Source: Klebsiella phage vB_KpnP_PRA33. From it: 40,605 bases of DNA. Below are positions 8,232 through 10,802 of this stretch, piece by piece. The stretch lies in the sequence record KY652723.1. One strand, given 5' to 3'. Each line of letters starts with the position of its first letter. Position 1 is the first letter of the stretch. The notes beneath the pieces were generated by a model. It was given only the letters and a program-made list of their open reading frames with translations. It was not told where the DNA came from and made no database searches. A program made the position numbers and the translations under genes.

Positions 8232-8495
8232 ATGCGCTTACACTTCAACAAATCAAACGGTATCTTCTCGGTTCGCCGGGAAGACCGCAGCACTGTAGCA
8301 GCCTCTGAGCGCCACGGTAAGATTCCGTTCATAGGTGATACCTTCGAGCTGGCACCAAGCGTGCACATCTTGGTTACTCGCGGTCTCTACGAATTGGCTC
8401 AGACTAAGAGCCGTCCTTTCGTACCCGTTGTGGTAACCAAGTGGCCTCGTATTCGTCTGTTCTGGGAGCGTATCAAGGAGGTCGTAAATGACTGA
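8232..8495 (+). CDS. Hypothetical protein (1.6 position)
   Basis: 87 aa, AAAGGAG RBS, syntenic with T7 gene 1.6. Confidence 0.5.
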
Positions 8496-8934
8496 CCAAA
8501 AGATGCTCGCTGTCTACAAAATTGTGGACAAGAACAAGGGACTCGATGGCTCCACTATGGAGTGCGCTGTGGCCTGCCTTGGCGTGGCCTGCGAGGACTG
8601 CCCGATGCAGGAAGTGAGCACTCTCGGAGAGGTGCGCGCTATGGACGACCGCAACGTTCCTAAGGCCAAAGAACCAGCAGAGCCTAAGGAAGACGATGGT
8701 GTGAAACAGCCAAGTCACTACCAGCTGTTCGAAGACGTTGAGGCTATCGAGGTGATTGCTCGAAGCATGACCCAAGAGATGTTTAAGGGGTACTGCCTCG
8801 GGAACATCCTAAAGTATCGCCTTCGGGCCGGTAAGAAGTCCGAGCTGGCAACCTTAGAGAAAGACATGGCGAAGGCCACTTTCTATCTGGAGCTGTACAC
8901 CAAGCACAAGGGTCTATGCTATGACGCCAAGTGA
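8488..8934 (+). CDS. gp1.7-like protein (DUF3310-like motif; T7 gp1.7 is a nucleotide kinase)
   Basis: 148 aa. The motif HYQ...IEVI......[18 protein letters not shown]....DL.KA.FYL is reminiscent of the DUF3310/gp1.7 family. It is shorter than T7 gp1.7 (196 aa). Confidence 0.45.
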
Positions 8935-8946
8935 CTGGTGCCGAGC

Positions 8947-9045
8947 AATGTACGAGAAGACGCTCGACCCTGCGTACATCACCCTGTATAACATGTGGAA
9001 GGAGCGAGAAGATGCAAAAGTTCGTCGTAACGGTCGAGACAGCTA
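8947..9045 (+). CDS. Possible gene 1.8-like small ORF
   Basis: 32-aa ORF overlapping the gene 2 start in another frame. Only the T7-syntenic position supports it. Confidence 0.2.
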
Positions 9046-9161
9046 ACGCATCGTACGAACTCCCGGTACACGCTGGGTCTCTTGAGGAGGCCCTCGAAGT
9101 TGCCGAGGCGGAGTATGAAGAGTTAGGCCAAGTGACTCGGGTACGCCCAGATAGTCATTAG
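9012..9161 (+). CDS. 2: Gp2-like inhibitor of host RNA polymerase
   Basis: MQKFVVTVETANASYELPVHAGSLEEALEVAEAEYEELGQVTRVRP aligns with T7 Gp2 [34 protein letters not shown]...EVTRVRP. GGAG RBS lies 8 nt upstream. Confidence 0.75.
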   Translation: MQKFVVTVETANASYELPVHAGSLEEALEVAEAEYEELGQVTRVRPDSH

Positions 9162-9179
9162 GTAGCACTATAGGGACAC
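9157..9179 (+). promoter_or_regulatory. Phage promoter (phi2.5-like)
   Basis: CATTAGGTAGCACTATAGGGACA. Confidence 0.75.
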
Positions 9180-9220
9180 ATGCTGTCCCTCTTACTGTTT
9201 AAACTTAAAGGAGATTCATC

Positions 9221-9916
9221 ATGGCATTCGCTAAGAAGAAGATTTATACCACCAAGATTGGTACCTGTGAGCCGTACGCTTACTTCAACAAGCCGGACTA
9301 TGGCGGTGAGGGTTTTGAGAACCCACGCGGTACCTACAAGGGTTCCGTAACGTTCAAGAACGAAGACTGTCAGGAGCTGGTAGACCTCATCGTTAAGACC
9401 CATGAGGAAAACTACGCGGCCCGTCTGGAAGCGCACGAAGCGAACCCGCCGAAGGTTCAGAAGGGCAAGAAACCCCTGAAGCCGTACGAAGGCGACATGC
9501 CGTTCTTCGACAACGGTGATGGTACCACCACGTTCAACTTCAAGTGCTACGGTTCGTACGAGGACAAGAAGACTGGCGAGACCAAGAAGATTGTTCTGGG
9601 TGTAGTAGACGCTAAAGGCAAGCGCATCCAAGACGTTCCGATCATCGGCGGTGGTTCCAAAGTGAAGATTCGCTTCTCACTGGTACCTTACGGCTGGTCT
9701 GCGGTAGCTGGTGCTTCCGTTAAGTTGCAGCTGGAAGGCGTGATGCTGGTCGAACTAGCTACCTTTGGTGGTGGCGAAGACGACTGGGCTGACGAAGCCG
9801 TAGAAGGCGGTTACGAAGCTGACGAACCTCGCAGCCGTAAACCTCAGGAAGACCCGGAAGACTGGTCTGGTGAGGAAGCTGACGAGGGTGAAGCCGAAGA
9901 AGAAGATGACTTCTAA
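9221..9916 (+). CDS. 2.5: Single-stranded DNA-binding protein
   Basis: 231 aa. ...TAEPYAY..KPDYG......NPRG.YK....F......CQ..VD.IVK.HEE.YAA..E..EANPP.V.KGKKPLKPYEGDMPFFDNGDGTTTF.FKCY.S..DKKT.ETK.I.L.VVD.KGK...DVPIIGGGSK.K...SLVPY.W....GASVKLQLE.VMLVELATFGGGEDDWADE, with the acidic C-terminal tail ending in F as in T7 gp2.5. Confidence 0.96.
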   Translation: MAFAKKKIYTTKIGTCEPYAYFNKPDYGGEGFENPRGTYKGSVTFKNEDCQELVDLIVKTHEENYAARLEAHEANPPKVQKGKKPLKPYEGDMPFFDNGDGTTTFNFKCYGSYEDKKTGETKKIVLGVVDAKGKRIQDVPIIGGGSKVKIRFSLVPYGWSAVAGASVKLQLEGVMLVELATFGGGEDDWADEAVEGGYEADEPRSRKPQEDPEDWSGEEADEGEAEEEDDF

Positions 9917-10368
9917 TGGCGGGCTATGGGGCCAAAGGGATTCGGAAGGTGGGTGCCTTCCGGTCTGGCCTTGAGGACAAGGTGTCCAAGCAGTTAGAAG
10001 CAAAGGGCGTCACGTTCGATTACGAATTGTGGCGCATCCCTTACGTTATTCCTGCGAGTGACCACCTTTACACTCCAGACTTCTTGTTACCCAATGGTAT
10101 CTTCGTGGAGACTAAGGGTCTCTGGGAAGCCGAGGACCGCAAGAAGCACCAATTGATTCGTGAGCAGTACCCGGAGTTAGACATCCGGTTAGTATTCTCT
10201 TCGAGTCGCACTAAGATTTACAAAGGGTCACCAACCAGTTACGCTGAGTGGTGCGAGAAGCATAACATCTTGTTTGCCGACAAATTGATTCCCGTAGACT
10301 GGCTGAAGGAGCCGAAGCGTGATGTACCGTTCGGCAAGTTCAAGCAGAAGAAAGGAGCAAAGCAATGA
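9916..10368 (+). CDS. 3: Endonuclease I (Holliday junction resolvase)
   Basis: 150 aa. MAGYGAKGIRKVGAFRSGLEDKVSKQLE.KG..F.YE.W..PYVIPAS.H.YTPDFLLPNGIFVETKGLWE..DRKKH.LIREQ.PELDIR.VFSSSRTK.YKGSPTSY.E.CEKH....ADKLIP is near-identical to T7 gp3. Confidence 0.96.
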   Translation: MAGYGAKGIRKVGAFRSGLEDKVSKQLEAKGVTFDYELWRIPYVIPASDHLYTPDFLLPNGIFVETKGLWEAEDRKKHQLIREQYPELDIRLVFSSSRTKIYKGSPTSYAEWCEKHNILFADKLIPVDWLKEPKRDVPFGKFKQKKGAKQ

Positions 10369-10802
10369 TTCACCCCAAACTTGAGATAGTGCCTACCGAT
10401 TCCTGCATCGAATGGACAGGAGCGCACCACAAGAATGGATACGGAGTCATCTCCCTTAACCGCAAGGTTGCCCACGAGCTGGGCGTGTCGCGTGTACAGT
10501 TCGTCCACCGAGCGTCATACATGCAGCACAAGGGACCCATTCCGAGTGGGCTTGTAGTCCGCCATACGTGCGACAATAAGCGCTGCTATAACCCTGAGCA
10601 TTTGCTACTTGGGACACAGAAAGATAATGCAGACGACGCTGTGGAGCGTGGACTGTCTAAACGAAAACTAACCGATGCAGATGTGGAGGTAATACGCTCA
10701 TCCAGTGAATCTAACAGGAAGTTAGGTAAATACTATGGAGTCAGTGCGACAACTATCTATCACATTAAGCACGGCACTAAATGGAGACACGTAAATGCCT
10801 AA
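10365..10802 (+). CDS. HNH-family homing endonuclease (free-standing), inserted between genes 3 and 3.5
   Basis: 145 aa. HNH core ...VVRHTCDNKRCYNPEHLLLGTQKDNADD... with an upstream Cys/His (CIEWTGAHHKNGYG) and a C-terminal IYHIKHG..W DNA-binding-like tail. Overlaps the gene 3 stop (ATGA) and the gene 3.5 start by 8 nt. T7 has nothing at this position. Confidence 0.8.
   Translation: MIHPKLEIVPTDSCIEWTGAHHKNGYGVISLNRKVAHELGVSRVQFVHRASYMQHKGPIPSGLVVRHTCDNKRCYNPEHLLLGTQKDNADDAVERGLSKRKLTDADVEVIRSSSESNRKLGKYYGVSATTIYHIKHGTKWRHVNA

Follow-up and report, generated by a model that had tools for sequence, protein, structure and literature searches.

The question raised by this locus is where gene 2, which encodes the Gp2-type host RNA polymerase inhibitor, begins. 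The window, that is the whole stretch of DNA that was analysed, is the 40,605-nt genome of the Klebsiella phage vB_KpnP_PRA33 (KY652723.1), and in it a GTG-started open reading frame (ORF) of 76 aa runs from 8931 to 9161, just as an earlier sequence-only reading of this DNA had described. The same reading had proposed that this frame hides the true gene 2, a 49-aa protein starting at the internal ATG 9012, and the protein family, the fold, the Shine-Dalgarno sequence, the codons, the natural variants, the annotation of relatives and the Gp2 of phage K11 all bear this proposal out. We consider it very probable that gene 2 is translated from ATG 9012 to give the 49-aa Gp2, and that the 27 codons lying upstream are the +1 frame of a gp1.8 homologue and form no part of the protein.

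The genome is that of a complete T7-like phage of the genus Przondovirus (Autographiviridae, Studiervirinae), as megablast of the intervals 8400-9300 and 1-25000 returned hundreds of Klebsiella phage matches, the best over the whole genome being those to vB_KpnP_IL33 and KpV766 (about 93-95% identical). The order of the T7 genes is kept locally (1.6, 1.7, 1.8, 2, a phi2.5-type promoter and 2.5; Table 1), and Gp2 sits in the slot that it occupies in the T7 annotation, in which the kinase, the gp1.8 homologue, Gp2, the phage promoter and the single-stranded DNA-binding protein follow one another. The records of relatives likewise name the product of gene 1.7 a nucleotide kinase. Two observations can be added on the surroundings. 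The gene 1.6-like ORF also matches the Pfam family PF06726, 'Bladder cancer-related protein BC10' (E 4e-16), an odd name for a family that is common to phages and eukaryotes. Further downstream, after gene 3, a 145-aa ORF (10365-10802) has a sequence that resembles an HNH-type homing endonuclease (...HTCDNKRCYNPEHL...).

Table 1. Features of the gene 1.6 to gene 2.5 region and copies of the phage promoter core, in positions of the window
Feature	Position	Strand	Product	Evidence or remark
Gene 1.6-like ORF	8232..8495		87 aa	phrog_1777
Gene 1.7-type nucleotide kinase	8488..8934	+	148 aa	Pfam DUF3310, E 3.3e-23; phrog_2585 (nucleotide kinase), E 6.6e-69
gp1.8 homologue	8921..9046	+	41 aa	phrog_1312, E 2.4e-15
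Upstream extension of the 76-aa ORF	8931..9011	+	GTG + 26 codons	+1 frame of gp1.8; judged untranslated in the gene 2 frame
Shine-Dalgarno sequence of gene 2, AAGGAG	8999..9004	+		inside the K-E codons of gp1.8
Gene 2, Gp2 host RNA polymerase inhibitor	9012..9161	+	49 aa, pI 4.4	PF16857, E 4.7e-17
Phage RNA polymerase promoter, phi2.5 equivalent, ATTAGGTAGCACTATAGGGA...	9154..9176	+		contains the gene 2 stop codon
Gene 2.5, single-stranded DNA-binding protein	9221..9916	+		synteny marker; named Gp2.5-like ssDNA-binding protein in relatives, also in T7
Promoter core copies	416, 5715, 6362, 6897, 9165, 11261, 18114, 20533, 21550, 26065, 33348, 40079	+		

The 49-aa protein read from ATG 9012, MQKFVVTVETANASYELPVHAGSLEEALEVAEAEYEELGQVTRVRPDSH, contains the Gp2 motif quoted in the sequence-only reading. 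Its match to PF16857 (RNA_pol_inhib) reaches 62.1 bits (cutoff 27) and aligns profile positions 1-47 of 47, over a span that corresponds to 29-74 in the residue numbering of the 76-aa ORF and to 2-47 in that of the 49-aa form. The protein also matches phrog_1307 (E 1.3e-21), and a sequence search of the PDB retrieves the T7 Gp2 structures 2wnm, 4lk0, 4llg and 2lmc, with an E value of 2.9e-8 for 2wnm/4lk0. BLASTP aligns its residues 2-46 with residues 14-59 of T7 Gp2 at 52% identity, with one 1-residue gap. This segment of T7 Gp2 was found by experiment to be the minimal functional region, shorter truncations being inactive (PMC3541766); the Gp2 encoded here thus holds the equivalent of the minimal functional region. 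The structural comparison agrees with the alignment of the sequences. A single-sequence AlphaFold (AF2) model of the 76-aa ORF gives residues 29-73 the strand-strand-helix-strand fold of T7 Gp2, with a pLDDT of 88-90 (strands 29-36, 41-48 and 67-73, helix 51-61, in the numbering of the 76-aa form), and residues 1-27 have no secondary structure in the model and are predicted to be disordered (pLDDT 43-57). The best PDB fold match found by Foldseek is 4lk0_M, the Gp2 chain of a complex with the E. coli holoenzyme (rmsd 1.0 Å, TM 0.87), and 2wnm and 4llg are among the further top matches.

The residues through which T7 Gp2 meets its target are largely kept. In T7, R56 and R58 of strand beta3 are invariant arginines that are essential for binding to the beta-prime jaw (PMC3541766), and they align with R43 and R45 of the Klebsiella phage protein. 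The T7 interface residues L36, L40, T55 and V57 (PMC3778932) are identical here, as L24, L28, T42 and V44. The negative strip of T7 Gp2 (E21, E34, D37, E38, E41, E44 and E53), which is required for inhibition and dispensable for binding (PMC3778932), is acidic at five of its seven positions (E9, E25, E26, E29 and E32), the two others being the non-acidic G22 and Q40 in place of E34 and E53; additional acidic residues (E34, E36 and E37) are found near the strip positions, and the acidic character as a whole is common to both proteins. An alignment with the members of the Gp2 family had been suggested as a check by the sequence-only reading, and it comes out in favour of Gp2 on the profile match, on the identity with T7 and on the two essential arginines. 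The differences from T7 Gp2 include F27 to Y and E24 to N, and above all the length, since the Klebsiella phage form lacks 13 N-terminal and 5 C-terminal residues and counts 49 aa against 64 aa. There is essentially no difference from the Gp2 of K11 (YP_002003801.1) and from the Przondovirus proteins named 'RNA polymerase inhibitor', which have the same 49 aa and fall in the same 90% identity cluster.

Seven independent lines of evidence (ribosome binding, codons, variants, conservation of the GTG, the wider family, selection and annotation) agree on the start of gene 2, and we infer from these that initiation takes place at ATG 9012. The in-frame ATG is preceded, with a spacer of 7 nt, by a perfect Shine-Dalgarno sequence, whose predicted duplex with the 3' end of the 16S rRNA (-8.0 kcal/mol) ranks within the strongest 5.3% when all start triplets of the window are compared and equals in strength those of the neighbouring genes 1.6 and 2.5. 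The GTG at 8931, in contrast, has no Shine-Dalgarno sequence, its pairing reaching just -2.2 kcal/mol. A codon model was trained on 22 long ORFs of the genome and expressed as a log-likelihood against the shifted frames. Over 8935-9011, the gene 2 frame obtains -13.5 nats, so that it looks like a shifted frame and scores as non-coding, while the frame of gp1.8 obtains +10.2 nats and looks coding; beyond 9047, it is the gene 2 frame that wins. That the extension is open at all is not beyond chance, because stops have a frequency of 0.042 in the +1 frame of the coding regions of this phage and an open run of 27-29 codons is therefore expected with p ~0.3. The peptide that it would add is moreover basic (pI 9.8), as opposed to the acidic Gp2 (Table 1). 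No RNA structure beyond chance was found around the gene 2 start, the local folding being no stabler than that of shuffled sequences (z 0.06).

The wider family points to the same start. The 76-aa ORF was searched against a library of 1.84 billion representative proteins, in which no homologue other than close ones aligns before residue 22; the alignments start between query residues 22 and 30, apart from those of a hybrid (P0031) and of two very long proteins of low identity (P0036 and P0040). Several members of the Gp2 family begin with M-K-F or M-Q-K-F right at the core. The profile phrog_1307 gives 11 more bits to the 76-aa form, and this gain was considered as a sign of a conserved extension and rejected, given that in the library search good coverage of the extension is limited to the hybrid, whose source is near-identical DNA. 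Such extra bits are expected if the members of the profile include long-form calls made on near-identical DNA.

We then turn to natural variation, for which the set comprises 51 sequences, namely this genome and 50 related loci. ATG 9012 and its AAGGAG are invariant in all 51, whereas the extension is not kept in all of them. Indeed, in one relative (L036) the extension is interrupted by two TAG codons in frame, at -48 and -6 relative to the gene 2 start; this relative has an intact Gp2, and one of the two changes that create these stops is silent in the frame that starts at 8921. Another (L021) has lost the GTG through an AGT to AGC change that is again silent in the 8921 frame; it has no other upstream start, and its Gp2 is intact. 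In a third (L006), a 1-nt insertion shifts the frame of the extension. The extension is otherwise open in the gene 2 frame, with GTG at -81, in 46 of the 50 related loci, and the conservation of this GTG can be explained by its position, since it is embedded in the Ser-Asp/Glu-Trp codons, which are conserved in gp1.8, and overlaps the TGA of the upstream gene.

The substitutions tell the same story from 9012 onward. In the part that is unique to gene 2 (9047-9158), the gene 2 frame shows 27 synonymous against 10 nonsynonymous alleles. In the overlap (9012-9046), it shows 4 synonymous and 3 conservative changes, against 0 synonymous and 6 nonsynonymous changes and 1 stop allele in the gp1.8 frame, a pattern which indicates that Gp2 dominates the selection from 9012 onward. 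Upstream (8948-9011, among Przondovirus sequences), the counts fail to separate the two frames, the substitutions among the 51 sequences being too few: each frame has 5 synonymous alleles, with a further 4 nonsynonymous alleles and 2 stops for gene 2, and 5 nonsynonymous alleles and 1 stop for gp1.8. In this interval, the variants with stops or a lost start and the codon model are more informative than the substitution counts. The near-invariance of 8948-9011 was also considered as a signal of dual coding and was dropped, as the whole block 8945-9500 is uniformly very conserved.

Two further observations concern individual sequences of this set. At position 8947, the present genome has an A where all 50 related loci have a G; the difference is silent in gp1.8 (GCA/GCG) and replaces R by Q in the gene 2 frame, and it is the reason why the protein collection has no exact copy of the 76-aa sequence. 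In another locus (L049:1656-1806, IMGVR_UViG_2974603841_000001), the A-run that directly follows the ATG of gene 2 has lost 1 nt, which brings the gp1.8 frame in line with the body of Gp2, so that a gp1.8-Gp2 fusion is predicted (MNPSDWCREMYEKTLDPAYITLYNMWKEWEDAKFVVTVE...). The fusion may be natural, or else the product of a sequencing error in the homopolymer. The hybrid protein P0031 of the library search (79 aa, 95% identical, from near-identical DNA) is a call similar to this fusion.

The frame that shares these codons deserves its own examination. Judged by its sequence, 8921..9046 is a real gene and the homologue of T7 gp1.8. It shares its first 14 nt with the end of gene 1.7 and its last 35 nt, in a different frame, with gene 2. 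In a comparison with T7 gp1.8 (NP_041968.1), 16 of 26 residues are identical (62%) over T7 residues 21-46 (SEWCRKMWEETFDDAYIKLYELWKSR in the alignment), and the two proteins have in common the core S-[DE]-W-C-R-x-M-[YW]-E-x-T-x-D-x-A-Y-I-x-L-Y-x-x-W-K as well as a start within the end of gene 1.7. They differ at both ends: only 3 residues precede the core here, against 20 in T7, and the Klebsiella phage protein carries a lineage-specific tail of 12 residues, with which it extends across the start of gene 2. With tblastn, residues 1-29 are matched in phages of Escherichia, Salmonella, Yersinia, Serratia and Pectobacterium at 40-79% identity. The homology sets in at residues 1-4, before the internal Met at 8948 is reached, and the ATG directly before P-S-[DE]-W is kept in three different upstream contexts; for these reasons we prefer the start at 8921 to a 32-aa version. 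The predicted Shine-Dalgarno sequence of the 8921 start is weak (-4.3 kcal/mol). The sequence-only reading had noticed a 1.8-like overlapping frame, and what it said of the homology stands, the frame being a true gp1.8 homologue by both the T7 identity and its PHROG profile. The coordinates and the start that it gave have to be corrected: the 32-aa ORF that it placed at 8947..9045 has its ATG at 8948 and a stop ending at 9046, a shift of one base, and is the inner part of the 41-aa gene.

Nor is the overlap with gene 2 a feature of T7 gene 1.8, as this reading had it, because in T7 the two genes do not overlap and lie 2 nt apart. The overlap seen here arises from the absence, in this lineage, of the 13 N-terminal residues of T7 Gp2. 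With this loss, the ATG of gene 2 comes to lie directly behind the conserved W-K-E-R of gp1.8, and gp1.8 itself runs on for 12 unconstrained residues. On the other side of the gene, three unrelated upstream genes have in common a TGA stop that lies within the S-D/E-W codons of gp1.8 (8921-8934; L032, L018 and L036): the kinase, an ORF ending in LEFIEEILSHEPE, and an ORF ending in NGKSK after an inserted segment. This suggests that the start of gene 1.8 is a recurrent junction of mosaic recombination.

Other accounts of these 27 codons have to be weighed against a gene 2 that starts at ATG 9012. The most direct one is that the 76-aa protein from GTG 8931 is the sole product of gene 2, made by translational coupling to gene 1.7, the stop of which (TGA, 8932-8934) overlaps the GTG as GTGA, a geometry that can allow termination-reinitiation without any Shine-Dalgarno sequence. 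The open frame and GTG of most relatives go in this direction, as do the score of the long form with phrog_1307 (88.4 bits, against 77.3 for the short one) and its annotation in the KP32 isolate 192. The proposal is, however, already contradicted by the two relatives in which Gp2 stays intact behind two stops or a lost start. The codon model rejects the frame, the extension would put a basic and, in the model, unstructured segment on an acidic protein, no divergent homologue covers it, and the GTG itself is accounted for by the codons of gp1.8 and the upstream stop; we give this account next to no chance. It is also very improbable, to our mind, that both forms are made, the 49-aa protein being the major one and the 76-aa protein a minor isoform produced by reinitiation at the GTGA junction. 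This junction and the usually open frame would permit it, and an extended form could still work, as T7 Gp2 has a natural N-terminal extension of 13 residues and a tagged construct of 84 residues still forms a complex with the jaw (2lmc). Yet the ATG of gp1.8 at 8921, 11 nt upstream of the same stop, is a likelier beneficiary of any coupling, and the extension bears no signature of selection and has been lost in some relatives without consequence.

One may also ask whether the gp1.8-like frame is itself unexpressed, 8935-9011 being then an untranslated leader that holds the ribosome-binding site of gene 2. The upstream substitution counts of this frame among Przondovirus sequences, with their stop allele, the frameshift of L006 in it, and its weak Shine-Dalgarno sequence could be read in this way, and gp1.8 is annotated as non-essential in T7. 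They have to be set against the conservation of residues 1-29 across distant T7-like phages, the identity with T7 gp1.8 and the phrog_1312 match, the codon statistics in favour of the frame, and an ATG that persists whatever lies upstream, which make an untranslated leader very unlikely. Finally, the overlap between genes 1.8 and 2 may be more than a by-product of the loss of the Gp2 N-terminus and have a regulatory role, and a minor 76-aa isoform could also arise by GTGA reinitiation, a reading that is suggested by the location of the gene 2 Shine-Dalgarno sequence and ATG inside the translated gp1.8 frame. We find it very unlikely. If it were true, the ribosomes that translate gp1.8 or terminate on it could tune the synthesis of a toxic RNA polymerase inhibitor.

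Coming back to the 49-aa Gp2 initiated at ATG 9012, its mode of action may be sketched by homology to T7 Gp2, whose effect on the sigma-70 holoenzyme has been described (PMC3778932, PMC3541766). The protein would be translated from ATG 9012 by means of the AAGGAG that lies within the last conserved codons of gene 1.8. It would then dock on the beta-prime jaw of the host polymerase, in the downstream DNA channel, through R43 and R45 together with L24, L28, T42 and V44, and its acidic surface would, with region 1.1 of sigma-70, block this channel so that no open promoter complexes could form. Transcription by the host polymerase would in this way be shut off in the middle and late stages of infection, once the phage polymerase has taken over. 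Jaw binding and inhibition of the host polymerase by the 49-aa protein are thus presumed by analogy with T7.

The start of gene 2, Gp2 and gp1.8 are already known, having been annotated since phage K11, and there is no new biology in them. The exact 49-aa protein is found on 544 public contigs, where it is called RNA polymerase inhibitor or the like, the K11 Gp2 being in the same cluster, and at 99% identity or more it is present in at least 179 phage records. The start equivalent to 9012 is annotated in all four of the relatives K26PH128C1, Emom, vB_Kp1 (RefSeq) and 066032, three of which also have the 41-aa ORF, and gp1.8 is annotated in K11 and on 193 contigs. The statement of the sequence-only reading that Gp2 is annotated as no more than the end part of a longer ORF does not extend to the public records, which usually carry the short form; it describes a mechanical longest-ORF call. 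A minority of records have the long form, as in the KP32 isolate 192 (MH172261.1, 8986..9216, 231 nt, 76 aa). The 76-aa ORF is an artefact of mechanical ORF calling, its frame crossing gene 1.8: longest-ORF calling over-extends the very small gene 2 and swallows its neighbour. This matters in practice, as the 49-aa sequence is the correct form for expression, for structural work and for the engineering of therapeutic Klebsiella phages. T7 Gp2 itself occurs in public collections as an 86-aa over-call with 22 extra N-terminal residues (P0039), an artefact of the same class.

The other end of the gene is bound to the phage transcription signals. The stop codon of gene 2 (TAG, 9159-9161) sits within the promoter of the phage polymerase, and in T7 phi2.5 likewise begins at the stop of gene 2, in the slot between genes 1.8 and 2.5. 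The promoter core, GCACTATAGGGA, has 12 copies in the genome when at most 1 mismatch is allowed, all of them on the + strand, against 0.09 expected. A search for promoters and terminators found no sigma-70-promoter-like sites in 8400-9300. The only notable hairpin of this interval, of 7 bp (9172-9190), stands at the 5' end of the transcript that starts from the promoter at 9165. It is also next to this promoter that the length of Gp2 varies: a 22-nt indel before the stop (9151-9161, against L003:1053-1077) gives a protein of 54 aa ending in PDTNFG.DL in some Przondovirus relatives, against 49 aa ending in PDSH here, and it touches only the variable tail that follows R-V-R-P.
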